DNA of 64,000 nucleotides from an uncultured delta proteobacterium (GCA_963760885.1 CAVXEY010000007.1:136883-200882); one strand, 5' to 3'. Shown: positions 4,317 through 24,473, counted from the stretch's first letter. Notes: generated by a model from the letters alone, not told the origin. Program-made: numbers and translations.

Positions 4317-6304
4317 TCCCGTCGCGTCTTCTTCCCGTCGCGATTCTTCTGGCCGCGTTGCTGCCCGGGGCGGCGGCCCAGGATCGGGAGGATCCCCCCC
4401 GGATCTTCTTCGAGAAGAAGGTCTATTCCGATACGGCGGGCGGGAGACAGAGTTTCTTCGAGACGTACATCGTGGAGAAGGGGGACACGCTCTGGAAGAT
4501 CCTCCAGCGGAACGAGCCCCTCACACCGGACCGGTACTCGGAGCGCCTCAAGGAATTCCGGCGCGCCAATCCGAAGGTCGCCGACCCATCGCGGATCGCG
4601 CCGGGCCAGAAACTTCTCGTTCCCTCCGGCGCAAAACCGAAGACGATCGCCAACGGCAAGACGATCGATTACACGGTGGAGCGGGGGGACACCCTTTTGA
4701 AGATCCTGTCCGCCCGGGGCGTTCCGGCCCCACAGCGGAAGAAGTTCCTCGACGCGATTCAGGAGATCAATACATCGGTCACGGATGTGGACCGGATCCT
4801 CGCGGGGAATACCCTCCTTCTTCCGACGGAAAAGTACTTCACGCGAGAGGTTCCGCCTGCGGAAACGGAAAAGACGATGGCCGCCGCGGAACCGGCGAAG
4901 GCGGCGATCGTCCCGGAACCGTCGGAGCCCGCCGCTCCGGTGAAACGGGCCGCGTCGCCGATAGCCCCGGAGCCGGAGAAGGTCGCACCCCCGGAGGTCG
5001 CGCCGTCGGTCCTCCCGCGCCCGGCGGAGGGCATGCCATCCCCGGAGGTTCCCCCTGCGCAGGCGTTGACCCGCGACATCGCCGCCGGCCCGGGCACGGA
5101 CGCCCTGGCCGCCGGAAAGCCGGAGGCGGAGCTGCTGGTTCCCAAGCCGGTTCCCCCGGACGCTTCGGTCGTGGAGACGGGGAAGGCGAAGCCCGCGCGG
5201 GAGGTCGTCACCCCACCGGTGCGGTCTCCATACCGGGGGCTCCTGTCGGACCTCTTCCTGGCGATCGGAGAGAGATGGGTCGATCACGGAACGATGTATC
5301 TTCCTCTCCCTTCCGGGGGGGACGTGTTGCTGCAGTTGTCCGATTTCCCCGTCGTGCGATTCTCCGGGGGAGCGGAGGCGCTCATCGATTTCCGCGGAGG
5401 CATCCCACCCCGCATTGCGGATGCGATCTCCTCCCAATGGAAATCGCTCCGGGTGGTCTCTCTCGCCGACGCGGGCGGGGCGGGGGATCGGATCGACCGG
5501 ATTCTGCGCGTGTCGGGATACTATTCCGTGAAAGAGGGGATCTCCAACCCCGTGGTCGTGGGCGAGACCGTTTCGGTCACGCTCCCGGCGCGATGGGTCA
5601 TCCAGCGGACCGAGGACAGCCTCCTTTTGGGAGACCTCATCCTGCTGAAAGAGGTCCCGGAAAGGCCCGATCCCGAACTTCTCGCCGTCCTTCGGTACGC
5701 CCGTCGCGTCGGGCTCCGCGTTCTTCCCTACGCCGACGATCCGAACGCGATGGAAGGGTTCCTCGTGGGCATCCCGGAGGATGCGTCGGAGGAAGGGATC
5801 CCGGTGGCCCTCGCGGTGCCGAAAACGGGCGGGCTCCCGGCGGTCGACTTCGGTCTCTCCCTCCTCGGGATCCCCGCCAGGACCGGGGAGCGTCTGCGCG
5901 TGGGTGGGGCGGAAGACGCCTTCCGGCTCGTGGTATCGCCCGAGCGGTTCTTCGAGGCAGGCGGGAAGAAGTACGTCGTCGATACCGGGAAGATGTCCAC
6001 AGCGATCCGCTCGATCCTCCGGGAATCGGGGTACGCCGTCTTCATGGCGGGGAAGGACGTTTCCGGCAGGGAGATTTTCCTGCGGCTGATGAAGGCGGCG
6101 GGGATCGTGCCGGAAGAGCGAAAGGAGTATCTGCTGACGGGGGGCGCGAAGGCGGGATATGAGATTCGGGTCACGGGCACGTTCCTTTCCGTGCCAGGTC
6201 CCTCGGGCGGGGCGGGACGAAGGATCGTGCTGATTCGCAGGAAGATTCACTCGGCCACTCGGGCGTTGCTCGGAGACATGGGTGTGGAAATCGTCGAGTG
6301 GTAG
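4313..6304 (+). CDS. secreted LysM-domain protein (two LysM repeats, Pro-rich linker, C-terminal domain of unknown function)
   Basis: TTG start overlapping the upstream stop, with RBS AGGGGAGA. Signal peptide MIPSRLLPVAILLAALLPGAAAQ. LysM signatures YIVEKGDTLWKIL and YTVERGDTLLKIL. A PEPxxP-rich spacer follows. Confidence 0.7.
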   Translation: MIPSRLLPVAILLAALLPGAAAQDREDPPRIFFEKKVYSDTAGGRQSFFETYIVEKGDTLWKILQRNEPLTPDRYSERLKEFRRANPKVADPSRIAPGQKLLVPSGAKPKTIANGKTIDYTVERGDTLLKILSARGVPAPQRKKFLDAIQEINTSVTDVDRILAGNTLLLPTEKYFTREVPPAETEKTMAAAEPAKAAIVPEPSEPAAPVKRAASPIAPEPEKVAPPEVAPSVLPRPAEGMPSPEVPPAQALTRDIAAGPGTDALAAGKPEAELLVPKPVPPDASVVETGKAKPAREVVTPPVRSPYRGLLSDLFLAIGERWVDHGTMYLPLPSGGDVLLQLSDFPVVRFSGGAEALIDFRGGIPPRIADAISSQWKSLRVVSLADAGGAGDRIDRILRVSGYYSVKEGISNPVVVGETVSVTLPARWVIQRTEDSLLLGDLILLKEVPERPDPELLAVLRYARRVGLRVLPYADDPNAMEGFLVGIPEDASEEGIPVALAVPKTGGLPAVDFGLSLLGIPARTGERLRVGGAEDAFRLVVSPERFFEAGGKKYVVDTGKMSTAIRSILRESGYAVFMAGKDVSGREIFLRLMKAAGIVPEERKEYLLTGGAKAGYEIRVTGTFLSVPGPSGGAGRRIVLIRRKIHSATRALLGDMGVEIVEW

Positions 6305-6355
6305 TCGTACAATTGTTATTGATGGTGGCGGACGGGTGTCGGAGGGCACCGATCG

Positions 6356-6949
6356 ATGAGGAGTGCGACGAACCGAAACTCGGCGCGCCGATTGGATGAC
6401 GCGTCGACTCTGACCGGGCTTCTGGAGTTTCGCCCCAGGACGGCGGTCGTGCTCGTTTTTCTTACCCTCATGGTCGCCGTCGTCGGCTGGCGGATCGCCC
6501 GGGACACGGGAGTCCGCCGGGTCAACGACTTTGCGCGCGAAGCGATCACGCTGTTCGATGCCGCTCCGTCGACGGGTACCGCAACCGCCCCGCCGGATGC
6601 CGACGAGGTGGAAAAGAGGTTCCGGTCCTTCGCGGGTGATTCCATCGGGATCCCGCGGGACGACCCCGACTTCGTTCCCGTCGAGGTCCGCAAGGTGGTG
6701 TTTGCGAACCATCCGGCCGTCTCGCTGCGGTTCCGCTACGCGGGGGAGGGGTATCTGCTCGTGGTGTCCGCCCGGGACCGGCTCCTCGGGACTCCAACCG
6801 TCGCGGCGTTCCCCGAGAGGTCGTTCGTCTCCGGGGAGCGGGACGGCAGGTCGTTCGTCCTGTGGGAGCGGGAGGAGGCGACGTGCATCGTTGTTTCGGA
6901 GGGCGATGTGACCCAGGCGTTCGAACTGGTTCGCCGCCTGTTCACCTGA
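6356..6949 (+). CDS. hypothetical membrane-anchored protein
   Basis: 197-aa ORF with a single N-terminal TM helix (VVLVFLTLMVAVVGW). No family recognised. Confidence 0.45.
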   Translation: MRSATNRNSARRLDDASTLTGLLEFRPRTAVVLVFLTLMVAVVGWRIARDTGVRRVNDFAREAITLFDAAPSTGTATAPPDADEVEKRFRSFAGDSIGIPRDDPDFVPVEVRKVVFANHPAVSLRFRYAGEGYLLVVSARDRLLGTPTVAAFPERSFVSGERDGRSFVLWEREEATCIVVSEGDVTQAFELVRRLFT

Positions 6950-6986
6950 TGCGGAGCGGAACCGAATTCGTCAAAGAGGAGCTTCG

Positions 6987-7625
6987 ATGAACGTCGCCAA
7001 GAGGATGAAGCGGAACCCCGTGTTCGTCGACGAGGGGGACTCGATGAAGAAGGCGATGGATCTGCTGAAGGAACACGAGATCCGTCACCTCCCCGTCCTG
7101 AAGGACGGGGAGCGGCTCGTCGGCATCCTCTCGGAGCGGGATATCAAACAGGCGTCCCCTTCCCCCGCGACCGCCCTCGAGATCCGGGAGATCTACTACC
7201 TCCTCGACAAGGTCAAGGTGAAGCAGATCATGACGCGGCGGCCGTACACCGTCTCCTCCACGGCCCCGATCGAGGAGGCGGCCCTGATCATCCGGGAGAA
7301 GAAGATCGGCTGCCTGCCCGTGGTGGACGACGGGAAACTCGTCGGGATCCTCACGGAGACCGACATCATCGATGCGTTCATCGAGGGGATGGGCGTGGAC
7401 GGACCGGGGTACCGGATCGAGCTGGTGCTTCAGAACCGGCCCGGGAAGCTTCTCGAACTCCTCAAGCTGCTCAAGGATTTCGAAGCGAACGTCGTCTCGG
7501 TCGCGACGGCGGCCCACGAGGATCCGGCAAAGATCATCAACATCCTTCGAATCGAGACCAGGAACTACAAGGTGTTGAAGGCGGCGATCCGGAAGTCCGG
7601 GTTCGATCTTCTTTCCGCCGATTGA
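6987..7625 (+). CDS. CBS-pair plus ACT domain protein (AcuB-like)
   Basis: Two CBS motifs (HLPVLKDGERLVGILSERDI; GCLPVVDDGKLVGILTETDI) followed by an ACT-like tail. RBS AGGAG. Confidence 0.8.
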   Translation: MNVAKRMKRNPVFVDEGDSMKKAMDLLKEHEIRHLPVLKDGERLVGILSERDIKQASPSPATALEIREIYYLLDKVKVKQIMTRRPYTVSSTAPIEEAALIIREKKIGCLPVVDDGKLVGILTETDIIDAFIEGMGVDGPGYRIELVLQNRPGKLLELLKLLKDFEANVVSVATAAHEDPAKIINILRIETRNYKVLKAAIRKSGFDLLSAD

Positions 7626-7723: not shown

Positions 7724-7942
7724 GTGAGACCAGAAGTCGAGAAAGTGCTGGAAAGCATTCGCCCCGCCCTCCAGGCCGATGGGGGAGACGTGGAACTCGT
7801 CGACATCGACGGTGGCGTGGTGAAGGTGCGCCTCATGGGCGCATGCGGCGGCTGCCCCATGGCCACCATGACGTTGAAGGGCGGCATCGAGGCGGCCCTC
7901 AAGGAGCGGATTCCGGCCGTCGAACGGGTGGAGTCCGTATAA
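7724..7942 (+). CDS. NifU-like (Nfu C-terminal domain) Fe-S assembly protein
   Basis: The 72-aa ORF has the [16 protein letters not shown] signature of Nfu/NifU C-terminal domains. GTG start. Confidence 0.8.
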
Positions 7943-7970: not shown

Positions 7971-8141
7971 ATGGCGTACAAAATCACGGAGGAGTGCATC
8001 GCCTGCGGCGCATGCGCGCCGGAGTGCCCCGTCCAGTGCATCGCGGAGGGGGACCCGATCTACACGATCGACGCAAGCATATGCACGGATTGCGCGGCGT
8101 GCGCGGGGGTGTGCCCTACCGCGGCGTGCGTCCCGGCGTAA
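7971..8141 (+). CDS. 2x[4Fe-4S] ferredoxin (56 aa)
   Basis: MAYKITEECIACGACAPECPVQCI...CTDCAACAGVCPTAAC. Two CxxCxxCxxxCP motifs. RBS GGGAGG 6 nt upstream. Confidence 0.8.
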   Translation: MAYKITEECIACGACAPECPVQCIAEGDPIYTIDASICTDCAACAGVCPTAACVPA

Positions 8142-8226: not shown

Positions 8227-8351
8227 ATCCGGGAGACGATACCCGTGGATCCGTTCAACGAAGATAGCGTGCCTGTAAGGTGCAGACGCCTCCAGGGGAC
8301 ATACTTGGCGTAAACCCGGGATGCGGGAAATGCGTGTCCCCCGCCCAGACG

Positions 8352-8921
8352 CTACAACAGCTTCCTCACTTCCTTGTCGAACGCTTCCTTGTCCATGTAC
8401 CCGACGTGGACGTTCTTGATCTCCCCGTCCTTTCCAACGAAGAAGGTGGTCGGGAGGGCGGAGACCCCGCCGTACGCGCGGGCGGTGGCCAGGTCCCCGA
8501 AAAGAATCTTGTACCCGATCCGGTTGCTCATCAGGAACCCCGGCATGTTCTCCCGCGTGTCGGTGTCGAGCGAGATGCCGATCAACTCGAAACCGTTCTC
8601 CTTGTGCCGGTTGTACACCTCGACGAATCCGGGGATCTCCTCCCGGCAGGGGGGGCACCAGGTCGCGAAGAAGTTGATGGCTGCCGGCTTCCCCGCCAGT
8701 TGGGCGGAGGAGTAGATGTTTCCGTTCGTGTCCTTGAGGGAGAACGGGGGAGCGGTCCTCGACCCGGAGAACCCCGCCGTCGTTCCCGTCCCGTCCTTCG
8801 TGACCTCCCGCTCCTGTTGCCAATTCCGGTATAGCAGGAGGACTCCCGCCAGTACCACGACCAGCGCCAGGATCAGCGGAACCGCGCCGATTCCATTTCG
8901 CGACAACGTACCCCTCTTCAT
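8352..8921 (-). CDS. TlpA/ResA-like thiol-disulfide oxidoreductase (thioredoxin fold, membrane anchored)
   Basis: N-terminal TM helix. WCPPC active site (FFATWCPPCREEIP). Confidence 0.8.
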   Translation of the reverse strand: MKRGTLSRNGIGAVPLILALVVVLAGVLLLYRNWQQEREVTKDGTGTTAGFSGSRTAPPFSLKDTNGNIYSSAQLAGKPAAINFFATWCPPCREEIPGFVEVYNRHKENGFELIGISLDTDTRENMPGFLMSNRIGYKILFGDLATARAYGGVSALPTTFFVGKDGEIKNVHVGYMDKEAFDKEVRKLL

Positions 8922-9120
8922 TCCGTGTCCCCCGTGTTGCGCCTCATCGACCTTGTAGGAACATGATACCAAATCCGGTGTCCGCCTGCCTCGATGCGAC
9001 CCTTCGCCGGGCGTCCACGGTTGTCCCCATGGTATTATGGCGTTTTGGGTGGATTCCGTTTGAAACGGAATCCCTTCCCGGGAACTCCTATTAGAATGTA
9101 CGTCGGCAAAGGAGAGCGCG

Positions 9121-9318
9121 ATGGCGAACTGGTCCATGGAAGAGGCGTTGCGGATGGCGTTGCGCCTGGAGGCGGAGAACTTCACGGAGTACGAAAAGAG
9201 CGCCGCCGAGGCGACCAACCCCGGCGTGAAGTCGATGTTCCTCTTTCTCGCGGAGGAGGAGCGCAACCACCTGAAACTGATAAAGGAAAAGATGGCGCAG
9301 TTCAACGTCACACCGTGA
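9121..9318 (+). CDS. small ferritin-like (rubrerythrin-type E...EXXH half-site) protein, copy 1
   Basis: 65 aa: LEAENFTEY...FLAEEERNHLKLIKE. Paralogous to the ORF at 11011..11208. Confidence 0.6.
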   Translation: MANWSMEEALRMALRLEAENFTEYEKSAAEATNPGVKSMFLFLAEEERNHLKLIKEKMAQFNVTP

Positions 9319-9340
9319 ACGGGGGAGCGCGGACGAACCG

Positions 9341-10549
9341 ATGACGAAGGCTTTTTTCGACCATATATCGACCACCCCGCTCGATCCCCGCGTCTTCGAG
9401 GCGATGCGTCCGTACTTTCTCGAATCGTACGGCAACCCGTCCTCCCACATCCACGACCAGGGGCAGGCGGCGCTTCGGGCGGTCGATCAGGCCAGGGGCG
9501 AGGTCGCGTCGCTGATCGGGGCGAAGGCGGGAGAGATCGTCTTCACCTCGGGGGCCACCGAGTCGAACAACCTCGCTGTCCTCGGCGCGGCGGAGGGCGC
9601 CGGCGCCGGGAAGCGGCACGTCGTCGTGTCGGATGTCGAGCACTTCTCCGTGATGAACGCATTGATCCCGCTGCGCAACGCGGGGTACGAGGTGACCATC
9701 CTCCCCGTGGACCGGAACGGGGTGGTCGACCCCGACGCCGTCCGGAAGGCGCTTCGGGCCGACACGGCGGTCCTCTCGGTGATGCACGCCAACTCCGAGA
9801 TCGGCACGATCGAGCCGGTCGGGCCGATCGGCCGGATCGCCAGGGAGGCGGGAGTCACGTTCCACGTCGATGCGACCGCGTCGGCGGGGCACATCCCCCT
9901 GGACGTCCGGGAGATCCCCGCGGATCTCGTCACCCTCTCGGCGCACAATTTCTACGGGCCGAAAGGGGCCGGCGCGTTGTACCTCCGCGAGGGGACGAAG
10001 GTGGCGCCGCGGACGTTCGGCGGGTTCCAGGAGATGGGCTACCGGGCCGGGACCGAAAATGTCCCCGCCGTGGTGGGGATGGGCTCGGCGGCGATCCTCG
10101 CGGGCAGGGAGATGGGGGCGTGGGCCGGGCATCTCTCCCGCCTGGGGAAGACCCTGTGGGACGGCCTGGCCGCGATCCCGATGCTCCACTACACCGGGCA
10201 CCCTTCCGAGCGTCTTCCCGGGCACGTCTCGTTCTGGGTGGAGCATGTCGAGGGGGAATCGCTCCTCCTGTTCCTCAACATGAAGGGGGTCATGGCCGCG
10301 TCCGGATCCGCATGCAGTTCCAACCTGCGGGGGCACGACGAGGAGGATCTCGTGGCCTCCCCCGTCCTCCGGGCGATCGGAGTGCCGAGCGACATCTGCA
10401 CCGGATCGATCACCTTCAGTCTCGGGAAGGGGAACACCGCGGACGAGGTCCGTTCGGCCCTCGACGCGATGCCCGGCATCGTGGAACGGCTCAGGGAGAT
10501 GTCCCCGACGTATCTCGACTACCAGAAGCAGCAAATCAAGGGAGGATGA
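9341..10549 (+). CDS. nifS: cysteine desulfurase (NifS/IscS family)
   Basis: 402 aa. Class-V aminotransferase pattern: TSGATESNN, the PLP Lys region SAHNFYGPKGAGAL, and the active-site Cys in SGSACSS. Confidence 0.9.
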   Translation: MTKAFFDHISTTPLDPRVFEAMRPYFLESYGNPSSHIHDQGQAALRAVDQARGEVASLIGAKAGEIVFTSGATESNNLAVLGAAEGAGAGKRHVVVSDVEHFSVMNALIPLRNAGYEVTILPVDRNGVVDPDAVRKALRADTAVLSVMHANSEIGTIEPVGPIGRIAREAGVTFHVDATASAGHIPLDVREIPADLVTLSAHNFYGPKGAGALYLREGTKVAPRTFGGFQEMGYRAGTENVPAVVGMGSAAILAGREMGAWAGHLSRLGKTLWDGLAAIPMLHYTGHPSERLPGHVSFWVEHVEGESLLLFLNMKGVMAASGSACSSNLRGHDEEDLVASPVLRAIGVPSDICTGSITFSLGKGNTADEVRSALDAMPGIVERLREMSPTYLDYQKQQIKGG

Positions 10550-10556
10550 CCGGATC

Positions 10557-10940
10557 ATGGCGGCGGGACCCTATAGCGAAAAGGTGATGGACCACTTCAT
10601 GAACCCCCGGAACGTGGGGGAGATCGAGAGTGCCGACGGCGTCGGCGAGGTCGGCAACCCCGCCTGCGGCGACATGATGCGCCTCTACCTCAAGATCGAC
10701 GGGGGGAGGGTCGTGGACGCGAAGTTCCGGACGTTCGGGTGCGGTGCGGCGATCGCCTCCAGCTCGATGCTGACGGAGATGATCAAGGGGAAGACCGTGG
10801 ATGAGGCCCGCGCGATCACGAACGAGCACGTCGCGGACGCGCTCGACGGGCTGCCGGCCGTCAAGATCCACTGCTCCGTGATGGCGGAACAGGCGGTGAA
10901 ATCCGCCCTCGACGACTACGCCAAAAAGCACGCCGGCTGA
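10557..10940 (+). CDS. iscU: Fe-S cluster scaffold IscU/NifU N-terminal domain
   Basis: GNPACGDMMRLYL, FRTFGCGAAIASS and HCSVMAEQA are the three conserved IscU Cys motifs. Confidence 0.9.
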   Translation: MAAGPYSEKVMDHFMNPRNVGEIESADGVGEVGNPACGDMMRLYLKIDGGRVVDAKFRTFGCGAAIASSSMLTEMIKGKTVDEARAITNEHVADALDGLPAVKIHCSVMAEQAVKSALDDYAKKHAG

Positions 10941-11010
10941 AAAGATTCCCCGGTTTCCCGGCACGCCCGAGGCGCTCCGAACCTTACACATCCCGCTGGA
11001 GGGTATCGAG

Positions 11011-11208
11011 ATGCCCGTAAACCCGATGGACGTGATCCTGATGGCCCTGGAACGCGAGAAGAACGCGTACCGGAACTACACGGAGTATGCGCGGATCGCC
11101 ACGCAGCCGGAGATCCGGGAGCTGTTCCGGTATCTCGCCGAAGAGGAGAAGAAGCACGTGAAACTCCTCTCCGACGAGATCGAGAAGGAAACGCACCAGG
11201 AGATGTAG
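11011..11208 (+). CDS. small ferritin-like (E...EXXH) protein, copy 2
   Basis: 65 aa: LEREKNAYRNYTEY...YLAEEEKKHVKLL. Paralogous to the ORF at 9121..9318. Confidence 0.6.
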   Translation: MPVNPMDVILMALEREKNAYRNYTEYARIATQPEIRELFRYLAEEEKKHVKLLSDEIEKETHQEM

Positions 11209-11212
11209 CCCG

Positions 11213-12676
11213 GTGCACCCGCGCGACGGGATGCGCCTCATCCTTTACGACAGCGCATCCAGGGGGAACGTACCCTTCGCGCCCGCGGACCCGGAGCGGG
11301 TCCGCATCTATACCTGCGGTCCCACCGTCTACCGGTACGCCCACATCGGGAACCTCCGAACCTACCTCCTCACCGACCTCCTCGTTCGTACCTTGCGCTT
11401 CCTCGGGTACGGAACGTTCGCCGTCCAGAACATCACCGACATGGGGCACATGCACCAGGAGCGATTGGAGGCGGGCGAAGACAAGGTGATCGCCGCCGCC
11501 CGCGCGGCCGGGAAGTCGGGTCGGGAGATCGCGCGATTCTTCACGGAGGCGTTCTTCCGAGACTGCGGCCGCATGGCGTTCCTGCCGGCGGACGCTTACC
11601 CGAGGGCCTCGGAGCACGTTCCGGAGATGATCGCGCTCGTGCGCGCCCTCGAGGAGCGTGGGGCCGTCTACGGGGGGGGCGGGTACCTCTACTTCGATGT
11701 GATGAATGCGCCCGGATACGGGATCTTCTCCGGTGCACGCCTCGGGGAGGGGGAGGCCGCGGTGCGCACGGACGAGACGATCCATCGGCACAAGAAGCGC
11801 CCGGAAGATTTCACGCTCTGGATGCCGGCCGAGCCCGACAGGGAGTTCCAGTGGGAGAGCCGCTGGGGCGCGGGTTGGCCGGGATGGCACATCGAGTGCG
11901 CGGCGATGGCGATCCGGCATCTCGGGCCGGAATTCGATGTCCACGTCGGAGGCGTCGACCTCCGTTTCCCGCATCACGAGAACTCCCGGGCGGTGGCGAT
12001 GACAGCGACCGGGAAAAAGTTCGCGGCTCTCTGGCTGCACGCCGCGCACCTGCTGGTCGACGGGAAGAAGATGTCCAAGTCCACCGGAAACGAGCACACG
12101 CTGGATGATCTCGCCGCTCGTCCCCGGGCCCTCGGAGATGGGTACTCCCCGGCCGACTTCCGGTACTATTGCCTCACACTTCACTACTCCTCGCCGATGA
12201 ACTTCACCTGGGAGGGGCAGGAGGCGGCCGCCCGGGCGCGCTCCCGCCTGCGGGCCGCTTTCCGACGGGCGGCTCTGCACGCGACGTCGGGAGAAGACGC
12301 CGCGGCGGCGTTGCGAGCGGAGTTTCGCGGCGCGATCTCGGACGACCTGAACATGCCGCGCGCTCTCGCCGTGGTCCACAAGGCGGTCCGGTCGGGGATC
12401 GGAGGGGACGCGGCCCGGGGGCTCGCCACGGAGTGGGACGCGGTCCTCGGCGTGGGCCTGCTCTCCGAAGCGGACGGCAGCGAGGGGAACGGCGTCCGCG
12501 AAGGGGAGGCGGAAACGATCCCGGTCGAGGTCGCGTCGATGGCCCGGGAACGGGAGACCCGGCGTCGGACGCGCGATTACGCGGCGGCGGACGCGCTTCG
12601 GGAAAAGATCCGGTCCGCGGGGTACGAAGTGGTGGACGCGGCGGAGGGAACCGTGGTTCTTCGGAATATCCAGTAG
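11213..12676 (+). CDS. cysS: cysteinyl-tRNA synthetase
   Basis: HIGN (HIGH) motif, KMSKS motif, CysRS-type zinc Cys (YTCGPTVY). The start may be GTG at 11213 or ATG at 11231. Confidence 0.9.
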   Translation: MHPRDGMRLILYDSASRGNVPFAPADPERVRIYTCGPTVYRYAHIGNLRTYLLTDLLVRTLRFLGYGTFAVQNITDMGHMHQERLEAGEDKVIAAARAAGKSGREIARFFTEAFFRDCGRMAFLPADAYPRASEHVPEMIALVRALEERGAVYGGGGYLYFDVMNAPGYGIFSGARLGEGEAAVRTDETIHRHKKRPEDFTLWMPAEPDREFQWESRWGAGWPGWHIECAAMAIRHLGPEFDVHVGGVDLRFPHHENSRAVAMTATGKKFAALWLHAAHLLVDGKKMSKSTGNEHTLDDLAARPRALGDGYSPADFRYYCLTLHYSSPMNFTWEGQEAAARARSRLRAAFRRAALHATSGEDAAAALRAEFRGAISDDLNMPRALAVVHKAVRSGIGGDAARGLATEWDAVLGVGLLSEADGSEGNGVREGEAETIPVEVASMARERETRRRTRDYAAADALREKIRSAGYEVVDAAEGTVVLRNIQ

Positions 12677-12696
12677 ACCCGCAGGAGGTGGCACGG

Positions 12697-13674
12697 ATGG
12701 GACCGGTTCGGAACGTGGATGACCTGATGGCGCTCGGGCACGGCTACCAGCGAGCGATGATCCTGTTCGCCGCGCTGAAGCTCGGGGTGTTCCGGGGGCT
12801 TGCGGGCGGGGGATGCGACGCACCCGCGCTGGCGCGCCGGGTCGGCGCCGACCCGGGGAAGCTCTCCATCCTCCTCGACGCGCTCGCGACCCAGGGGCTG
12901 GTCGGGAAAAAGGGGAACAAATACCGGAACGCGCCGGCCGCGCGGGACCTCCTGCTCCCGGGGCCCCGTTCGATGGAGTCCATCCTCCTGCACCTCCTCG
13001 ACGGGTGGGGGGAATGGGGCCGCCTTCCCGCCACGGTACGGGCGGGGCGGACGCCTCGCGGAGGTGTGGAGGGGAACCTGCAGGAGAACTTCATTCGCGG
13101 GATGGAGGAAAACGCCCGCGAGCGGGCGGCGGCCGTGGCCCGGCAGATTCCTCTCCGCGGCGGGGACCGTCTCCTCGACCTCGGGGGCGGCCCGGGGTCG
13201 TATGCCCTCGCGTGGGCCGACGCCTGCCCGGGCGCGGAGATCACCGTCTTCGATACGCCGGCGACGCTGCGGGTCACGCGGAAGATCCTTCGGGAGAAGG
13301 GCGCGTACGGGCGGGTGCGCCTGGCGGAGGGGGATTTCCTCAAGGACCCTCTCGGCGGACCGTACGATTTCGTGTGGATCTCCCAGATCCTGCACGCCTA
13401 CTCCGAATCGGACTGCGTGAAACTGCTCCGCCGGGCGCGCTCCGCCCTGGTCCCGGGCGGGCGGGTGGCGGTCCAGGAGTTCCTGCTGGCGGAGGGGAAG
13501 ACCTCCCCGCCGGGACCGGTCTTCTTTTCCGTCCACATGGTGGCGGTGACCGAGGGCGGAAGGGCGTACACGGCCCGGGAGATCACGGCGATGATGAGGA
13601 CGGCGGGATTCCGGAAGCTCTCCGCCGATCCGCCGGACCCGCGGGGCGTCGGCATCGTGCGGGGGGGCGCGTGA
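12697..13674 (+). CDS. class I SAM-dependent O-methyltransferase (N-terminal dimerisation domain plus MTase)
   Basis: LDLGGGPGSYA SAM-binding motif. O-MTase-like layout. RBS GCAGGAGGTG. Confidence 0.75.
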   Translation: MGPVRNVDDLMALGHGYQRAMILFAALKLGVFRGLAGGGCDAPALARRVGADPGKLSILLDALATQGLVGKKGNKYRNAPAARDLLLPGPRSMESILLHLLDGWGEWGRLPATVRAGRTPRGGVEGNLQENFIRGMEENARERAAAVARQIPLRGGDRLLDLGGGPGSYALAWADACPGAEITVFDTPATLRVTRKILREKGAYGRVRLAEGDFLKDPLGGPYDFVWISQILHAYSESDCVKLLRRARSALVPGGRVAVQEFLLAEGKTSPPGPVFFSVHMVAVTEGGRAYTAREITAMMRTAGFRKLSADPPDPRGVGIVRGGA

Positions 13675-14560
13675 ACCGCCGCACGCCGCTCGGCAAAGGG
13701 GCGCTGAATCGTATCAGGGGCGCACAACAAGAATGGAACAGGAAGACTCGTCCCGATCGATTGCCGCAATGGCGATCCGCATCTTGTTTTATTTTGGCAT
13801 TTCCTCCATGGAGGGAAGGTGTGATGACAAGCGAATTGCGGATCCGGATCCCGGTTGCCGGATGCGAAAACGATGGCGGTTCGCCCCTCACCCTGCATAT
13901 CTGCGCAGGGCAGCACCCTCGGGGGAGGTTCCAGAAATAACGTATATATTTCGAATAATTTCATTAATATAGCGACTCAACCGCGTGCTCTCGACATTTT
14001 CGGATTCTCTTTGACCCTCGGAACGGGGGCGGGGAAAAACGGGTGATGAGATATTCGATGGCCTGTTGAGTTTTACAACACAAATTTTCGTTACGAATGC
14101 AATACGCATTTCCGCTGATTTCGGGGTGCAAAAATATTCCGCATCCAAAGATTTCCCGCCATCGAATCATTCGTGTGGCAATCCACCAGATAATTCATTA
14201 AATATCCGCATGTTGAACGGTGTCATGGATCCGGAATCCACCTCTGTGGCAATGAATGCGGTCGCCATGCGGCTGGAAGGGGGAATGTAGAAAAATTATA
14301 GTACTGTAGAATATTTCTATTATAGTATTCTTAAAAATATCGGTAGTAGCGGCATCATCTTCCACTTCATCCCATAAAATGATATTATTTCAAAAATAAA
14401 ATAATGTATCGGTGAAAATTATTTCGTAGTAAGCAGAATCGTCATAATTCCTTAATTTTGTCAATATCATTCAAGTCTTATATTGTAACAATAAAACATT
14501 ATTTTAATGTATTCGTATAATGGAAATAAATTATTTGTATGTCGTTTTGCTGAATTTGTA

Positions 14561-14589
14561 TTGACAGATACTGGAATTGTGCGTAGTTT
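14561..14589 (+). promoter_or_regulatory. sigma70-like promoter candidate inside the AT-rich island (TTGACA-17 nt-TAGTTT)
   Basis: Perfect -35 hexamer TTGACA, 17-nt spacer and TAGTTT -10, about 160 nt upstream of the hdrA-like gene. Confidence 0.4.
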
Positions 14590-14601
14590 GAAAATTATGA
14601 T

Positions 14602-14640
14602 GGTCAGGCCAATTCATGATGAAGGTCAGTCCAATTCATG
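14602..14640 (+). repeat. 17-nt direct repeat (GGTCAGGCCAATTCATG / GGTCAGTCCAATTCATG) with 22-nt periodicity
   Basis: Two copies with one mismatch, lying directly downstream of the candidate -10. Candidate operator or activator site. Confidence 0.5.
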
Positions 14641-14747
14641 CGGGAAAATCCCGGGAACTTCCTTCCATTACTTCGGAGCGTGACCGCGGACCACGGTATA
14701 GCGACTGTCAACCCCGATCAGAGCGGTACCGAACGAGGTAAAGCGCG

Positions 14748-16568
14748 ATGGTCAACGAATTGAGAACGGGCGTCTACATCTGCCAGGCAGGGATCGGCGG
14801 CGCCAACGACGTCGACCTGAAAAAAGTCGTCCGATACGCAGAAAGTCTCCCCAATGTCATAAAGGTTGGAATTCTGGGCGAGAATCCGAGACTCGATCCC
14901 GTTGTCCTCGCCCAGGAGATCCGGAACGACGAAATCGAGCGGATCGTCGTTGCGGGAGACTCTTCGGGGTACTTCAAGCCGGCCTTCACGTGCGCGATGG
15001 TTCAGGCGGGAGGCGATCCGGGCAACGTACTGGTTGCATCGTTCCTCGGAAACGGCGCCTCCGGACTGAACTCGACCGAACGTGCCAAGGGCGTAGTGGC
15101 CTGCTCCGTCTACGGCGTTCCCTTCGGACTGGCGGCGGTTCCGCAGTACGCGGCGGTTCACCCCGATACGCTCGTGATCGGCGGGGGCGTTGGCGGCATT
15201 CAGGCCGCCCTGGAAATCGCCGATGCCGGGAAGAAGGTCTTCCTCGTCGAGAAAAGCGGCACCATCGGCGGCCACATGGCGATGTTCGACAAGACCTTCC
15301 CGACCCTCGACTGCGCCGCCTGCATCCTGACCCCCAAGATGGTCGCTGTCGGTCAGCACAAGATGATCGACCTGATGACGTACTCCGAGGTCCAGGAGGT
15401 GACCGGATCGCCGGGGGCCTACAAGGTCAAGGTCCGAAGGTTCGCACGCCGCGTCGACGAAATCGCCTGCGTGGCCTGCAACGCCTGCTCCGAGGTCTGC
15501 CCGACCAGCGTTCCGAGCGAATTCGACGCCGGGATCAGCATGAGAAAGGCGATCTACGTTCCCTTCCCCCAGGCGGTGCCCAACTCTTTCCTGGTCGACG
15601 GCGATTCATGCCTCTACGTGCAGAGCGGCGGAAAGAAGTGCGGGGCGTGCGTCAAGAAGTGCGCGAAGGAAGCCATCCACCTCGACGACGAGGACCAGAT
15701 CGTCGAACTGACGGTCGGCAACATCGTCGTCGCTACCGGCTACGCCCCCTTCGACGCCAGGAGGATCGAGCGATACGGGTACGGCGTTTATCCCAACGTC
15801 CTCACGTCCCTCGAATTCGAGCGCCTGACGAACGCATCGGGCCCGACCGGCGGGAACATCGTGATGAAGGCCCTGCGGCACAACAAGCGCAAGAAGGTCG
15901 ACGAGTGGGTTTTCTCTACCGAGAATCCCAAACCGAAAAGCGTGGCGATCATCCACTGCATCGGCTCGCGCGACGAGAATTACAACTCGTACTGCTCGCG
16001 GGTCTGCTGCATGTACTCGCTGAAGTTCGCCCATCTGGTCCGGGAAAAGCTGCCCGACGCCGCCTGCTACGAGTTCTACATCGACATGCGCGCGTACGGG
16101 AAGAACTACGAGGAGTTCTTCCAGCGGATCGGGGAGGAAGGAGTCTTCCTTGTACGCGGCCGCACGGGCAAGGTCGTCGAGCAGAGCGGAAAGATGAGTA
16201 TCAAGGGCGAGGACATCGTTGGAGACAAGGTGCTCGAGTTCCAGGTCGACATGGTGATCCTCTCCGTAGGTTTGGAGGCGTCGGCCGATGCGGAGCGCCT
16301 CTCGGGACTTCTCGGAATCGCGCGCGACAAGGACGGCTGGTTCGCGGAACGGGACTACAACGCCGATCCGACCGGCACGGAACGCGGGGGAATCTTCGTC
16401 GCCGGCGTTTGTCAGGGGCCGAAGGACATCCCCGACACCGTATCACAGGCCTCGGCGGCGGCGGCCCGGGTCCTCAAGAGCATCCTCAGCGGGCGAATTC
16501 AGGAGAGTCGGTCCGGGTTGACGCTTGCCGATATCGAATCGCGCATCCGTCGTCAGGCGCACGCATAA
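14748..16568 (+). CDS. hdrA: HdrA-like FAD/FeS flavoprotein (heterodisulfide reductase subunit A family) with a cysteine-poor N-terminal domain
   Basis: FAD fold LVIGGGVGGIQAALEIADAGKKVFLVEKSG. HdrA signature CSRVCC. Inserted ferredoxin CVACNACSEVCP. The N-domain reads YICQAGIGG where canonical HdrA has CxCG. Confidence 0.85.
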   Translation: MVNELRTGVYICQAGIGGANDVDLKKVVRYAESLPNVIKVGILGENPRLDPVVLAQEIRNDEIERIVVAGDSSGYFKPAFTCAMVQAGGDPGNVLVASFLGNGASGLNSTERAKGVVACSVYGVPFGLAAVPQYAAVHPDTLVIGGGVGGIQAALEIADAGKKVFLVEKSGTIGGHMAMFDKTFPTLDCAACILTPKMVAVGQHKMIDLMTYSEVQEVTGSPGAYKVKVRRFARRVDEIACVACNACSEVCPTSVPSEFDAGISMRKAIYVPFPQAVPNSFLVDGDSCLYVQSGGKKCGACVKKCAKEAIHLDDEDQIVELTVGNIVVATGYAPFDARRIERYGYGVYPNVLTSLEFERLTNASGPTGGNIVMKALRHNKRKKVDEWVFSTENPKPKSVAIIHCIGSRDENYNSYCSRVCCMYSLKFAHLVREKLPDAACYEFYIDMRAYGKNYEEFFQRIGEEGVFLVRGRTGKVVEQSGKMSIKGEDIVGDKVLEFQVDMVILSVGLEASADAERLSGLLGIARDKDGWFAERDYNADPTGTERGGIFVAGVCQGPKDIPDTVSQASAAAARVLKSILSGRIQESRSGLTLADIESRIRRQAHA

Positions 16569-16584
16569 CACGGAGGACATGGAC

Positions 16585-17760
16585 ATGACCGTCCGTTCGA
16601 ACCCCAAGCTGGTCGAGGAAGTGAGGCGCTACGGCGCAGAGGACGTGCTCAAGTGCTACCACTGCGGCAACTGCAGCGCGGTCTGTCCGTTCTCGAAAGA
16701 GCCCTTCATCTTTCCACGGAAGTCCATGCGGTATCTCCAGATGGGACTTACGGAGAAGCTCAAGGGCAACCTTGAGCCGTGGCTGTGCTACTACTGCGGC
16801 GAGTGCTCGGAGCAGTGCCCGCGCGAGGCGGAGCCGGGCGAGACGATGATGAGCATGCGCCGCTGGCTCACCTCGCGGTACGACTTCACGGGGATCTCCC
16901 GGCTGTTCTACCAGTCCTGGAAGGCCGAACTGGCGGCGATCCTCCTCATGGCGGCGCTGACGGGGTTGGGATTCACCCTGTTCGGGTTGAAATACGGGGG
17001 AGGGGATATCCGGGTCTACGCGGGTCCCAACGCCTTCCTGCCCAGCGAAAGCGTGCACATCTTTGACTGGATCATGGGCGGGGTCCTCGGGGGACTGCTC
17101 ATGATCAATTGCGCCCGGATGTGGTGGTTCACGACGGGGAAGAGCGATACGCTGGAAATCTCCCTCTTCTCCTACATAAAGCACGCGCTTCTGCTGCCAT
17201 GGCATTTCATGACCCAGAAGCGATACAGCGAATGCGGCAAGAAAGGGCCGTGGCTGGTCCACTTCATCCTGGTGTGGAGTTATCTCACGCTTCTGATCCT
17301 GATCATGTTCTTCCTGAACCGGATGCATCACGGGCCGGAGACGCTCTGGGACGTCCACGCCTTCGGATACCTGGCGACTGCCGGGCTTCTCGGAACGACC
17401 TTCTACGCGTTGCGAGGCCGCTGGAAAAAAACCGAAACCCATTACAAGCACTCCCATGAAACCGACATGATCTTCCTGTACCTGCTGCTGTACGTCGGCG
17501 GGACAGGGATCCTGCAGAACATCCTTTACCGGGCCTTCGGCCTCGAAACCGCGGCCAACATCGTCTACATCGTGCACATGATGGGCGTCGTGCCGATGCT
17601 GACCCTCGAGGTTCCCTTCAGCAAGTGGGGCCACCTTGCCTACCGGCCCCTCGCGATGTACCTCTCCCGTCTTCATGTCGATGCGATAACGGCGAGGGAG
17701 GGCGCTTTAGAGCGGGCAAAGATCCCCGCGATGATGGCGCAGAAGCAGATGACCGCGTAG
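16585..17760 (+). CDS. QmoC-like protein: HdrC-type di-[4Fe-4S] domain fused to a multi-TM cytochrome-b-like (HdrE/NarI-like) membrane domain
   Basis: CYHCGNCSAVCP and CYYCGECSEQCP motifs, then about 6 TM helices with conserved His pairs. RBS GGAGGA 7 nt upstream of the ATG at 16585. Alternative ATG at 16579. Confidence 0.8.
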   Translation: MTVRSNPKLVEEVRRYGAEDVLKCYHCGNCSAVCPFSKEPFIFPRKSMRYLQMGLTEKLKGNLEPWLCYYCGECSEQCPREAEPGETMMSMRRWLTSRYDFTGISRLFYQSWKAELAAILLMAALTGLGFTLFGLKYGGGDIRVYAGPNAFLPSESVHIFDWIMGGVLGGLLMINCARMWWFTTGKSDTLEISLFSYIKHALLLPWHFMTQKRYSECGKKGPWLVHFILVWSYLTLLILIMFFLNRMHHGPETLWDVHAFGYLATAGLLGTTFYALRGRWKKTETHYKHSHETDMIFLYLLLYVGGTGILQNILYRAFGLETAANIVYIVHMMGVVPMLTLEVPFSKWGHLAYRPLAMYLSRLHVDAITAREGALERAKIPAMMAQKQMTA

Positions 17761-17772
17761 CCGGAGGAACGC

Positions 17773-19503
17773 ATGAAAAAAGAAGCGAGGATCGGCGTAT
17801 ACGTCTGCAATTGCGGAACCAACATCGCCAAGATGGTCGACTGCGAGGCGGTGTCCGGATTCGCATCCACGCAGCCCGGCGTGATCGCCTGCAAGTCGTA
17901 CAAGTACATGTGTTCCAACCCGGGCCAGGAAATGATCGTCAACGACATCCAGAACCTGAAACTCAACCGTGTCGTCGTCGCGGCGTGCAGTCCCCGCATG
18001 CACGAGCCGACCTTCCGCACCACTCTCGACAAGGCGGGGATCAACCCGTTCTTCCTCGAGATGGCCAACATCCGAGAGCAGTGCAGCTGGGTTCATGAAA
18101 ACCGCGAAACGGCCACGGACAAGGCGAAGGCATTGACCTGCGCGGCGATCCGCCGCGTGAAGCATCACGAACCGTTCAACAGGCAGTCCGTCCCGATGCA
18201 TCCCGCCACGCTGGTGATCGGCGGGGGCATCGCCGGCCTGACGGCCGCCCTCGAGCTCGCGGACGCCGATCAACCGGTGTACCTGGTCGAACGGGAGGAT
18301 CACCTCGGCGGCAACGTGGCCCGGATCGACCTGACGGCGCCTTATCTTTATTCCGCGCGCGACATGCTCAACGAGCGGATGACGCGCGTCCTCCGCCATC
18401 CCCGGATCACCGTCCTCCTCAACTCGGAGGTCGGGTCGATCTCGGGGTACGTGGGGAACTTCAAGGCCGTTATGAAGGGCGCGATTCCGGGCCAGGAGAT
18501 CGACGTGGGAAGCATCGTCGTCTGCACCGGCTTCCAGGAATTCGATGCGTCACGGGTTGCGCGCTTCGGGTACGGCCGGTTGCCCGACGTCATCACCTCG
18601 TTCGAGCTGGAACGGATGCTGCGCGAGGGGCGTGTCCTGACCCGGGGCGGCCACGAACCGAAGTACGTCACGCTGATCAACTGCGTCGGCAGCCGCAACG
18701 AGGAATACAACCATTACTGTTCGCGGGTCTGCTGCATGACCGCTCTGAAGTACGGGCACGAGATCCGGTCCGCGGTGCCGAATGTCTACATCCACAACCT
18801 CTACACCGACATGAACGCGTTCGGGAAGGGGTGCGAGGATTTCTACCTCCACAGCGCCGAGAGAAAAGCGATTTTCATGATGTACGGCCAGAACAACCCC
18901 CCTACGGTCGTTAATGCGAGGCCCGGGGACGGTTGCGGGTTGCTGGTTCGCGTGCATGAAATGCTCTCCGGGGAACACGTGGAGATCCCCGCCGACCTGG
19001 TCGTCCTGATGGTCGGCATGGAGGCCCGTTCCGACTCCGCACAGGTCGCGCGCCTGGTCAACATCAGCCGCGACAAGGACGGGTGGTTCATCGAAAGCCA
19101 TCCCAAGCTCGATCCGGTAGCCACCACGACCGACGGCATCTTCATCGCCGGGGTGTGCCAGGCACCGAAGGATATCCCCGAAACGGTCGCCCAGGCGCGG
19201 GCTGCCGTAGCCCGGATCCTGGGCAAAATAAGCAACGGAGAGATCGAAGTGGCGCCGGTGTTCGCCGAGATCGACGAGAACTTCTGTTCCGGCTGTCGCA
19301 TGTGCAACGAGCTGTGCCCCTACGCGGCGATCGAGTACAGCGTGGAAAAGAAGCGCAGTCACGTCATCAGTGTAATGTGCAAGGCGTGCGGAACCTGCGT
19401 CGCGGCCTGCCCGTCGGGCGCAATCAAGGGTCGACACTTCACGGATCGGGAAATCTGCGAAGAGATCGAGGGGGTGCTGGAATGGGATTCGAGCCGCGCA
19501 TAG
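17773..19503 (+). CDS. hdrA: HdrA (heterodisulfide reductase subunit A-like flavoprotein), canonical
   Basis: N-domain VYVCNCGTNI...C. FAD fold LVIGGGIAGLTAALELA. CSRVCCM. C-terminal ferredoxin CSGCRMCNELCP / CKACGTCVAACP. Confidence 0.85.
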   Translation: MKKEARIGVYVCNCGTNIAKMVDCEAVSGFASTQPGVIACKSYKYMCSNPGQEMIVNDIQNLKLNRVVVAACSPRMHEPTFRTTLDKAGINPFFLEMANIREQCSWVHENRETATDKAKALTCAAIRRVKHHEPFNRQSVPMHPATLVIGGGIAGLTAALELADADQPVYLVEREDHLGGNVARIDLTAPYLYSARDMLNERMTRVLRHPRITVLLNSEVGSISGYVGNFKAVMKGAIPGQEIDVGSIVVCTGFQEFDASRVARFGYGRLPDVITSFELERMLREGRVLTRGGHEPKYVTLINCVGSRNEEYNHYCSRVCCMTALKYGHEIRSAVPNVYIHNLYTDMNAFGKGCEDFYLHSAERKAIFMMYGQNNPPTVVNARPGDGCGLLVRVHEMLSGEHVEIPADLVVLMVGMEARSDSAQVARLVNISRDKDGWFIESHPKLDPVATTTDGIFIAGVCQAPKDIPETVAQARAAVARILGKISNGEIEVAPVFAEIDENFCSGCRMCNELCPYAAIEYSVEKKRSHVISVMCKACGTCVAACPSGAIKGRHFTDREICEEIEGVLEWDSSRA

Positions 19504-19916
19504 TAGGCTTCCTCTGCAACTGGTGCTCCTACACCGGGGCCGACCTCGCGGGGACCAGCAGGATCAAGTACCAGCCCAACGTGACTGTGATCCGGGTCAT
19601 GTGCTCCGCCAGGATCGATCCCACCTTCGTGATCAAGGCGCTGACCGCGGGCGCGGATGGCGTGCTCATCTGCGGCTGCCATCCAGGCGACTGCCACTAT
19701 GTCGAAGGAAACTACAAAACCATGCGCCGCTACCCGCTGTTGAAGCGGATGCTTCGGGACTTCGGAATCGAGGAGGAAAGGGTTCGCCTGGAATGGGTCA
19801 GCGCCAGCGAGGGGCAGCGTTTCGCCGACGTCATCAACGACATGACCGAGAAGGTCCGTGCGCTTGGCCCGAGCCGGATCCGGGTCTCGCTGGAAGCCGA
19901 CAAGGTCGCGAGGTGA
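19482..19916 (+). CDS. mvhD: MvhD (methyl-viologen-reducing hydrogenase delta subunit-like [2Fe-2S] protein)
   Basis: FLCNWCSY...ICGCHPGDCHY motif set. Overlaps the hdrA end by 22 nt. Confidence 0.85.
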   Translation: MGFEPRIVGFLCNWCSYTGADLAGTSRIKYQPNVTVIRVMCSARIDPTFVIKALTAGADGVLICGCHPGDCHYVEGNYKTMRRYPLLKRMLRDFGIEEERVRLEWVSASEGQRFADVINDMTEKVRALGPSRIRVSLEADKVAR

Positions 19917-19919
19917 GTC

Positions 19920-24377: not shown

Positions 24378-24473
24378 GGAAGCGGATGGGGCGCTGGTGG
24401 CCCCCCCGGACTTCAAATCCGGTCGGGAGGCGGAAACGTCTCCGGTGGGTTCGATTCCCTCACGCTTCCGCCA
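24378..24473 (+). tRNA. selC: tRNA-Sec-like (anticodon UCA, long variable arm, ~96 nt)
   Basis: GGAAGCGG...CCGGACTTCAAATCCGG...(long extra arm)...GGGTTCGATTCCC...CGCTTCCGCCA. The anticodon loop CTTCAAA gives a TCA anticodon. The acceptor stem is 7 bp plus a G.A pair, which is not ideal for a bacterial Sec tRNA. Confidence 0.7.

Follow-up and report, generated by a model that had tools for sequence, protein, structure and literature searches.

The source of the iron used in assembling iron–sulfur (Fe-S) clusters is still unsettled, and frataxin/CyaY, IscA, IscX, and RIC are the debated candidates. According to a 2026 review, an iron donor is one of the things that cluster synthesis generally requires (PMC13066941). 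Here, we focus on a locus from an uncultured delta proteobacterium (GCA_963760885.1 CAVXEY010000007.1:136883-200882, a stretch of 64,000 nucleotides (nt) that we call the window), in which a cysteine desulfurase gene (nifS) and a scaffold gene (iscU) are bracketed by two small paralogous genes, miniA and miniB (together, the minis). Both encode tiny proteins of 65 amino acids (aa) that keep all ferritin-type ligands, and a whole bacterial class, Candidatus Deferrimicrobia, brackets its desulfurase–scaffold pair in this way.

The closest described proteins are half-ferritins, in which two chains have to come together to complete one di-iron site. In EncFtn, known from Rhodospirillum rubrum (PDB 5da5), Haliangium ochraceum (5n5f), and Pyrococcus furiosus (5n5e), each chain contributes the half-site Glu32/Glu62/His65 (plus Tyr39). 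Mutation of Glu32, Glu62, or His65 in the R. rubrum protein reduces or abolishes ferroxidase activity, and the di-iron interface, which is formed on iron binding, is the weaker of the interfaces in the assembly (PMC11202242). Assembly as such is reported to be iron-dependent (PMC11202242, PMC5012862). EncB from Myxococcus xanthus (7s5c/7s5k) likewise creates its ferroxidase center through an antiparallel homodimer of two-helix chains (PMC11126975), and a 68-aa construct of it assembles as a decamer. The complete EncB, on the other hand, counts 158 aa and functions within the EncA shell; its C-terminal region is long and disordered and has the targeting peptide PLTVGSL at its end. A further half-ferritin, NE0167 (3k6c), has no targeting peptide and is placed in the “s-FLP” class, whose function is unknown (PMC11202242); a link between this class and Fe-S genes is not mentioned in that review.

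By sequence, the nearest family is formed by the full-length COG1633/Pfam Rubrerythrin proteins (TM1526, 1vjx; PF1190, 2fzf; 2oh3; and the erythrin domain of MbfA), which are 140-180 aa long and hold a whole di-iron site per chain. A two-helix ancestor has been proposed for the ferritin-like superfamily. Among designed proteins, the de novo “due ferri” protein DF1 (PDB 1mft and related) is a helix-loop-helix of ~50 residues that forms a homodimeric four-helix bundle with an E...ExxH di-metal site. RIC, also known as YtfE, has a hemerythrin-like fold with His-rich ligands within a single chain. This di-iron helical-bundle protein binds IscS as well as IscU and acts as an iron donor in the assembly of clusters (PMC8117158), and an interaction with the SUF system is reported from Staphylococcus aureus (PMC12720416).

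Both the fold and the half-site principle are already known from EncFtn, EncB, and NE0167, and the genes discussed here carry generic public annotation. What appears to be undescribed is the setting, namely a conserved, class-wide pair of 65-residue single-repeat ferritin-like proteins in a minimal NifS-IscU operon. The full texts covered by our literature search, which extended to encapsulated ferritins and the evolution of the ferritin superfamily, included no paper that describes ferritin-like or rubrerythrin-like genes within operons of the nifS-iscU, MIS, or isc type, and none that deals with the mini proteins in Deferrimicrobium/MBNT15. The half-ferritin architecture, characterized mainly as encapsulin cargo, would hereby be extended to a shell-free, operon-embedded setting.

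Two half-ferritins of 65 residues

The genes miniA (9121..9318) and miniB (11011..11208) both lie on the plus strand and start with an ATG, preceded by a Shine-Dalgarno-like GGAG 7-9 nt to its 5' side. A first-pass annotation of this DNA had presented them as paralogous 65-aa open reading frames (ORFs), which is borne out by a gapless alignment of 51 residues with 35% identity (BLASTP E = 4e-11). Their GC content at third codon positions (0.88-0.89) matches that of the adjoining genes, and the median ratio of nonsynonymous to synonymous substitution rates against orthologs (0.15 for miniA, 0.21 for miniB) points to purifying selection on both. Homologs of miniA form 120 clusters, and both minis are found in every related locus that is not interrupted by a contig end. 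Owing to this combination of paralogy, codon composition, selection, and presence in relatives, we regard miniA and miniB as real protein-coding genes. Their products are small (7.5-7.9 kDa) and acidic (isoelectric point about 5.1), and neither contains a single cysteine. No additional copies turned up in the 64-kb window when its six-frame translation was searched by tblastn and with hidden Markov models (HMMs).

The shared motif that had been read from the two sequences, “NxTEY” followed by [F/Y]LAEEExxHxKL, holds for its second half, which is in register between the paralogs. The first half, however, is out of register, as the gapless alignment places TEY of miniA (residues 22-24) opposite RNY of miniB (residues 21-23). 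The homologous pattern is instead E-x6-Y ... E-E-x2-H, corresponding to E17/Y24/E46-E47/H50 in miniA and E16/Y23/E45-E46/H49 in miniB. The putative ligands are consequently E17, Y24, E47 (with E46), and H50 in the former and E16, Y23, E46 (with E45), and H49 in the latter.

Profile searches place the minis in a well-populated family. The Pfam Rubrerythrin profile (PF02915) matches miniA with 29.8 bits and miniB with 38.1 bits, above the gathering cut-off of 22.8, and it does so over one half of the domain (profile positions 1-58 and 2-56 of 137, respectively). A profile built from the two paralogs was used in a HMMER search against 1.84 billion representative proteins, yielding 5,428 relatives at E <= 1e-3. 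The best 150 of these are mostly proteins of 140-180 aa with two profile matches, next to a handful of 65-69 aa with one. Since the full-length relatives are matched twice, the minis are to be seen as single-repeat members of the ferritin-like family.

Structure prediction agrees with this assignment. Instead of a complete four-helix bundle with two E...ExxH repeats per chain, the single-chain AlphaFold2 models consist of two helices, spanning residues 6-30 and 34-60 in miniA (predicted local distance difference test score 95.8) and residues 5-29 and 33-64 in miniB (score 91.9). For both minis, the best sequence match in the PDB is EncB (7s5k; E = 6e-5 for miniA and 1e-6 for miniB), and in Foldseek searches of the PDB the top 11 matches of either model are EncB chains (template modeling (TM) score 0.83-0.88, root-mean-square deviation (rmsd) 0.5-0.9 Å, 29-35% identity), with a TM score of 0.83 and an rmsd of 0.6 Å for miniB. 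EncC, EncFtn (from P. furiosus, H. ochraceum, and R. rubrum), NE0167, halves of COG1633 proteins, and the designed DF1 bundle follow in the ranking. The Foldseek E-values are weak (about 5e-3), as is expected of a 60-residue hairpin, and the match list is homogeneous. Homology to the ferritin-like superfamily, which the first-pass annotation had made a condition for its proposal, is clearly detectable: PF02915 scores above its cut-off, and EncB ranks first in the PDB in the comparison of sequences as well as of folds. Profiles and models also support the proposed layout of one Glu helix and one ExxH helix, that is, half a ferritin/rubrerythrin di-iron site. Judged from both, the minis belong to the ferritin-like/rubrerythrin superfamily as free-standing proteins of two helices, each predicted to supply half of a di-iron carboxylate site.

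Compared with the COG1633 proteins, in which each half of the chain matches the mini profile, the minis are single repeats that resemble neither the N-terminal nor the C-terminal half preferentially. Nothing points to an origin from a split full-length gene, given that the HMMs of the paralogs score both halves of 133 full-length relatives about equally (N-/C-half scores in bits: 26.2/24.8 with the miniA model, 29.2/29.9 with the miniB model). Nor are the minis true rubrerythrins, because they have no cysteine and no rubredoxin domain; a Cys4 rubredoxin domain is absent from both, and the rubrerythrin family model NF045767 (RuberyRbr) scores 17.7 bits against a cut-off of 200.

The putative metal site is strongly conserved. 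In alignments of both paralogs, of orthologs down to about 50% identity, and of single-repeat relatives from other phyla (alignments A2, A3, and A4), every sequence retains residues E16, E45, E46, and H49 (miniB numbering), and at least 90% of the sequences retain Y23. The ligand spacing Glu / Tyr+7 / Glu+30 / His+33 equals that of Glu32/Tyr39/Glu62/His65 in R. rubrum EncFtn, and the ligand columns match EncB residue for residue. From this homology we infer that the minis dimerize around two iron ions. The crystallized core of EncB comprises 68 residues and is present as ten chains, so a protein of mini size can form a whole ring. As the corresponding EncFtn interface is the weaker one and induced by iron, we would also expect the iron bound by the minis to be comparatively exchangeable. 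The designed DF1 bundle superimposes with TM scores of 0.72-0.73 (query-normalized) and 0.92 (target-normalized), at a sequence E-value of 0.08-0.09 that is not significant; since DF1 proteins are designed, this is a resemblance only.

The likeness to EncB covers a two-helix hairpin of ~60 residues with the same Glu/Tyr/Glu-Glu/His columns, and EncB heads the list of matches in sequence and fold alike, which brings up the idea that the minis are EncB-like encapsulin cargo for iron storage, with the shell gene located elsewhere in the genome. We consider this very improbable. In contrast to EncB, the minis end 5-15 residues past helix 2, carry other conserved tails, and are found in a nifS-iscU operon; they possess neither the disordered linker nor an LxVGSL-type targeting peptide (consensus L/F-x-V/I-x-x-L/I, from the peptide table of PMC11202242). 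Their scores are far short of what the NCBIfam models require (EncB, 27-32 bits versus 210; EncB_fam, 22-26 versus 90; TIGR04535, 16-18 versus 125), and they also miss the cut-off of the Pfam family EncFtn-like (14.6 versus 27). Ten scanned window ORFs of encapsulin-like size (about 239-375 aa) contain other domains and no encapsulin domain, and among the genes called in three near-identical related contigs, out to 10 kb on each flank of the locus, there is no encapsulin shell gene. EncFtn and NE0167 are more distant in that they measure about 95-140 aa, have extra N- and C-terminal segments, and share 14-27% identity with the minis.

The nifS-iscU locus in Candidatus Deferrimicrobia

The gene directly downstream of miniA encodes a NifS/IscS-type class-V cysteine desulfurase (9341..10549, plus strand; 402 aa) with the active-site loop SGSACSS and a PF00266 match at 3.4e-75. 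Its best NCBIfam match is NifS (TIGR03402) at 417.8 bits, which is under the equivalog cut-off of 530.75. It is followed by the iscU/nifU scaffold gene (10557..10940, plus strand; 127 aa), in whose translation Cys37, Asp39, Cys63, and His105-Cys106 can be read and which matches PF01592 at 4.2e-53 as well as TIGR03419 (NifU_clost) at 209.2 bits (cut-off 187.9). Beyond miniB lies cysS for cysteine--tRNA ligase (11213..12676, plus strand; TIGR00435 at 365.2 bits, cut-off 340), the start of which is 4 nt past the miniB stop codon, or 22 nt if an internal ATG is used. The PF00266, TIGR03419, and TIGR00435 matches confirm the arrangement first read from the sequence, with nifS-iscU bracketed by the minis and cysS directly 3'. 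The intergenic gaps along miniA-nifS-iscU-miniB-cysS are 22, 7, 70, and 4 nt, and the spacing of 7-70 nt suggests co-transcription.

With its PF00266 and PF01592 genes side by side and 7 nt apart, the locus corresponds to a minimal NifS-NifU/IscU (MIS/NIF-like) system among the Fe-S assembly system types listed in PMC13066941; no hscBA or iscA was found among the gene calls within 10 kb on either side. Elsewhere in the window, at 56468-57592 on the minus strand, there is a second gene of the class-V aminotransferase fold (PF00266, 2.2e-32), which could encode a cysteine desulfurase or an unrelated aminotransferase.

By annotation, the window belongs to Candidatus Deferrimicrobium/Deferrimicrobiaceae, formerly candidate phylum MBNT15. 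Related loci were taken from contigs of one genome per species (GTDB). About 44 species-level loci carry a NifS/IscU of the Deferrimicrobia type, and the full order miniA-nifS-iscU-miniB-cysS is present in 29 of the 44, while in most of the remaining loci a gene is missing only through a contig end. The order persists down to 63% identity for NifS, 52% for CysS, and 44-48% for the minis (loci L047 and L048). Loss of the gene pair from its place beside nifS/iscU in relatives had been named as grounds for giving up the initial proposal; within Candidatus Deferrimicrobia, the pair is clearly kept.

The locus is less rigid at its other members. In the 12-kb loci L012, L017, and L024, the miniA-nifS-iscU-miniB core is intact, but no cysS is found within 6 kb 3' of miniB (downstream of position 6195), so the linkage to cysteinyl-tRNA synthetase is common but dispensable. 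The cysteine/sulfur-trafficking theme proposed for the block as a whole is therefore weaker than claimed: cysS does adjoin the minis in the window, but it is missing from these three loci, and a TlpA-like gene upstream of miniA turns out to be divergent and to encode a membrane-anchored protein. In about 15 relatives (L007, L024-L026, L028-L031, L033-L036, L038, L039, and L042), the space between iscU and miniB is taken up by an intact gene (about 5470-5975, locus coordinates) for a full-length ferritin-like protein of 153-158 aa in which both E...ExxH repeats are present. This iscU-miniB gap measures 70 nt in the window and about 540 nt without an intact ORF in L016, L018, L019, L022, and L040, where it may represent a decaying full-length ferritin-like copy. 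Counting the minis, which are constant, and the full-length gene, which is optional, this class has two or three ferritin-like genes in its Fe-S locus.

Conservation of gene order could in principle reflect no more than the inherited synteny of one lineage, with the minis serving general iron homeostasis and being mechanistically unconnected with Fe-S assembly. It is true that documentation of the strict order of five genes is confined to Deferrimicrobia, that other phyla place the mini gene elsewhere, and that the public annotation as “ferritin family protein” or “rubrerythrin” is generic. However, the order outlasts large sequence divergence even as the presence of cysS and of the third ferritin-like gene varies, an independent clade (see below) again pairs a mini with an IscU-like gene, and the short spacing speaks for a common transcript. 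On balance, we find mere synteny an improbable explanation.

The two paralogs differ in their C-terminal tails, each of which is conserved. The miniA tail has the pattern F-x-V-x-P/E (ending ...KMAQFNVTP) and is placed with high confidence by AlphaFold, and that of miniB follows ...EIEKE-x-[YH]-Q-E-M (ending ...EKETHQEM); neither matches a known targeting peptide. Being conserved and paralogue-specific, these tails could be docking elements, as one would expect if the minis were metal-sensing adaptors comparable to IscX or CyaY, binding NifS and/or IscU and tuning the desulfurase according to iron, with the di-iron site as a sensor and not a source. Small size, acidity, and the tight placement in the operon would suit such adaptors, and so would an assembly that depends on iron, as reported for EncFtn (PMC11202242; PMC5012862). 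Against this, the minis have no sequence relation to IscX or CyaY/frataxin (no Pfam match at E <= 1), the likeness being one of size and acidity only, and the miniB tail is also present in miniB-like proteins whose genes have no desulfurase or scaffold gene nearby. We thus give an adaptor function only a small chance.

Mini relatives in other phyla and possible roles

As for the wider family, a search with an alignment of single-repeat proteins gave 449 clusters at E <= 1e-5, of which the 120 best-scoring ones all contain proteins of 65-91 aa, annotated as “ferritin family protein,” “rubrerythrin,” or hypothetical. The miniB group comprises several phyla and shares the C-terminus ...(D/E)EI(D/E)K-x-[FY]-x-x-E-M, of which the final ...[FY]-x-x-E-M is kept from Deferrimicrobia to Calditrichota and Zixibacteria (in miniB, window positions 11179-11205). 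The miniA type, recognizable by W4 and its F-x-V-x-P/E tail, was seen only in Deferrimicrobia.

A clade of 68-aa proteins from Calditrichota and unclassified bacteria has its mini gene 3' of an IscU-like NifU_N gene and/or a gene for a PrxQ/Bcp-type peroxiredoxin, and these NifU_N, peroxiredoxin, and mini genes are located downstream of a sigma-54 two-component pair. In L087 (4515-4976; also in L088, L089, L049, and L056), the peroxiredoxin gene contains an in-frame TGA at the position of the catalytic cysteine (FYPGDNTSG*TKQ, where the asterisk marks the TGA), which is why gene callers fragment it. The gene probably encodes a selenocysteine peroxiredoxin. In loci of the L087 type, this gene sits between the IscU-like gene and the miniB-like gene. 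As for the window itself, a tRNA-Sec gene is found at 24378-24469 on the plus strand (Rfam RF01852, 74 bits), so its organism evidently decodes selenocysteine. We also considered a SUF operon 5' of the Calditrichota mini, as the sizes of 278, 362, and 466 aa had suggested sufC, sufD, and sufB. Pfam ruled this out, as the products were identified as a TIM barrel of the xylose-isomerase-like kind, a histidine kinase with PAS domain, and a sigma-54 response regulator, leaving a 156-aa gene as the only NifU_N member.

Other phyla show other neighborhoods. In Zixibacteria (L058-L060, L062, L064, L065, L069, and L073), a miniB-like gene of 81 aa always comes after a full-length ferritin-like gene of 166 aa, and at least in L064 (about 5250-7283) the quinolinate synthase gene nadA is directly 3' of the mini gene. 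NadA is an oxygen-sensitive [4Fe-4S] enzyme. In Anaerolineae, the mini gene stands beside amidohydrolase and YtxH genes, within about 1.3 kb of a divergent hrcA-grpE-dnaK-dnaJ cluster. The link between minis and a U-type scaffold recurs in a second lineage without being universal, and a link to oxidant defense appears as well.

The latter leads to the view that the minis are oxidant scavengers, whose inter-subunit di-iron site acts in the manner of rubrerythrin, sulerythrin, or a ferroxidase, consumes H2O2 or O2 with electrons from ferredoxin or Fe2+, and thereby protects the nascent clusters on IscU and the persulfide on NifS when oxygen is encountered, without any transfer of iron. Several observations speak in its favor: the minis fall into the Pfam family Rubrerythrin, ferroxidases are their closest relatives of solved structure, a nearly invariant tyrosine lies by the site, and in the 68-aa clade a PrxQ/Bcp-type peroxiredoxin gene separates the mini from the IscU-like gene, in an arrangement headed by a sigma-54 two-component system. 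In the window, genes of the AhpC-TSA/Redoxin family and for a ferredoxin adjoin miniA, and exposure of the host to oxygen is predicted (PMC9386147). However, without a rubredoxin domain or a cysteine the minis have no built-in electron entry, the TlpA-like neighbor is membrane-anchored and probably periplasmic, and scavenging leaves it unexplained why two paralogs stand on either side of nifS-iscU in every genome. We consider scavenging possible but rather unlikely, although it comes closest to the reading that we favor (see below); if the minis did prove to be simple peroxide or oxygen scavengers, they would be a modest addition to the rubrerythrin family.

The reading that we favor, albeit tentatively, is that the minis buffer or donate iron at the scaffold. 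Storage is unlikely because there is no shell for mineralization and free EncB lets oxidized iron precipitate. Handling of Fe2+ at the scaffold would, in turn, be the most economical role since the minis flank nifS-iscU in a predicted iron reducer that has oxidases. MBNT15 bacteria are predicted to be iron-reducing and to have aa3, cbb3, and bd oxidases (PMC9386147). In this proposed mechanism, two mini subunits would pack antiparallel into a four-helix bundle (A-A, B-B, or A-B), possibly within an EncB-like ring. With the di-iron center at the subunit interface, iron binding would be coupled to oligomerization, and the iron would be comparatively labile. The minis might then capture Fe2+ and pass it to IscU while NifS supplies the sulfur, and at the same time keep Fenton-active iron from oxidants in an iron reducer that also respires oxygen.

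Such a role would functionally resemble that of the RIC/YtfE donors on a different fold. We propose this as a functional analogy alone, as the two have no sequence relation (no hemerythrin or ScdA-type match for the minis at Pfam E <= 1 or NCBIfam E <= 0.1) and RIC is not known to be encoded in isc or nif operons.

Critically speaking, three points weigh against iron delivery by the minis. Adjacency to an Fe-S scaffold is not general for the family, as the contexts in Zixibacteria and Anaerolineae illustrate. The invariant tyrosine, the homology to rubrerythrins and ferroxidases, and the peroxiredoxin of the outgroup fit redox catalysis equally well. Free EncB and EncFtn, moreover, oxidize iron and fail to keep it soluble (PMC11126975), unlike what is expected of an Fe2+ donor.

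A stronger version of the proposal would make miniA/miniB a minimal natural “due ferri” oligomer, whose labile inter-subunit di-iron site is the dedicated iron donor of a two-gene NifS-IscU system. We regard this version as doubtful, but its consequences would be considerable. If true, it would offer a compact four-protein system for reconstituting the long-disputed iron-delivery step of Fe-S biogenesis and a living example of the proposed two-helix ancestor of the ferritin-like superfamily. More generally, should the minis supply or protect iron at the scaffold, the system is small enough to be rebuilt in vitro.

Upstream region and neighboring genes

Upstream of miniA, Pfam matches bear out the neighbors named in the first-pass annotation: a CBS-CBS-ACT protein (6987..7625, plus strand), an Nfu-type protein with the NifU C-terminal domain (7724..7942, plus strand), a 2x[4Fe-4S] ferredoxin (7971..8141, plus strand), and a TlpA/Redoxin-family thiol-disulfide oxidoreductase, the last of these on the minus strand (8352..8921). 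The latter has 189 aa, an N-terminal membrane anchor, a WCPPC motif, and AhpC-TSA, Redoxin, and Thioredoxin_8 matches. The CBS-ACT, Nfu, and ferredoxin genes are syntenic in most Deferrimicrobia loci, and the TlpA-like gene is also kept in position.

The leader of miniA holds two candidate regulatory elements. The first, TGgTATTAT (9030..9038, plus strand), is an extended -10-like element read by eye and from its conservation, and a putative promoter of the operon; TATTAT or TATTGT is kept at this position in an upstream alignment of about 40 loci. A scan with the strict sigma-70 consensus gave no promoter in 8300-13000 (terminator-like matches there fall inside genes), so the -10 assignment is an inferred one. 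The second is a perfect 11-1-11 palindrome, GGATTCCGTTT-G-AAACGGAATCC (9051..9073), about 50 nt 5' of the miniA ATG, which could be an operator or a hairpin in the 5' untranslated region. It is the sole copy in the window, where 0.01 would be expected by chance. Its right arm (TGAAACGGAATC) and the TGAAACG core are kept across Deferrimicrobia, whereas the left arm shows no consistent compensatory changes. The leader hairpin reaches an RNA fold z-score of just -2.1, and at gathering thresholds Rfam detects no RNA element in the leader or between the genes, with only tRNAs elsewhere in the window. The palindrome hence looks more like a candidate operator for a dimeric regulator than like an RNA hairpin, and together with the -10-like element it is consistent with one regulated promoter before miniA, as far as can be read from the sequence.

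Farther downstream, an AT-rich stretch of ~1 kb without a long ORF (13850-14750), where GC drops to 26% versus about 70% around it, separates an O-methyltransferase-like gene from an HdrA-like gene. The contigs L001 and L003 hold other genes at the equivalent site (Usp, TerC, and cytidylate-kinase-like genes, again between the O-methyltransferase-like and HdrA-like genes), which makes this a variable spot. The plus-strand genes that follow (14748-22349) encode HdrA-like FAD/Fe-S oxidoreductases, a ferredoxin-like protein with multiple clusters, an MvhD/FlpD-like protein, and proteins resembling the small subunit of [NiFe]-hydrogenases (Oxidored_q6), and this gene cluster looks like an Hdr/Mvh-type electron-bifurcating module.

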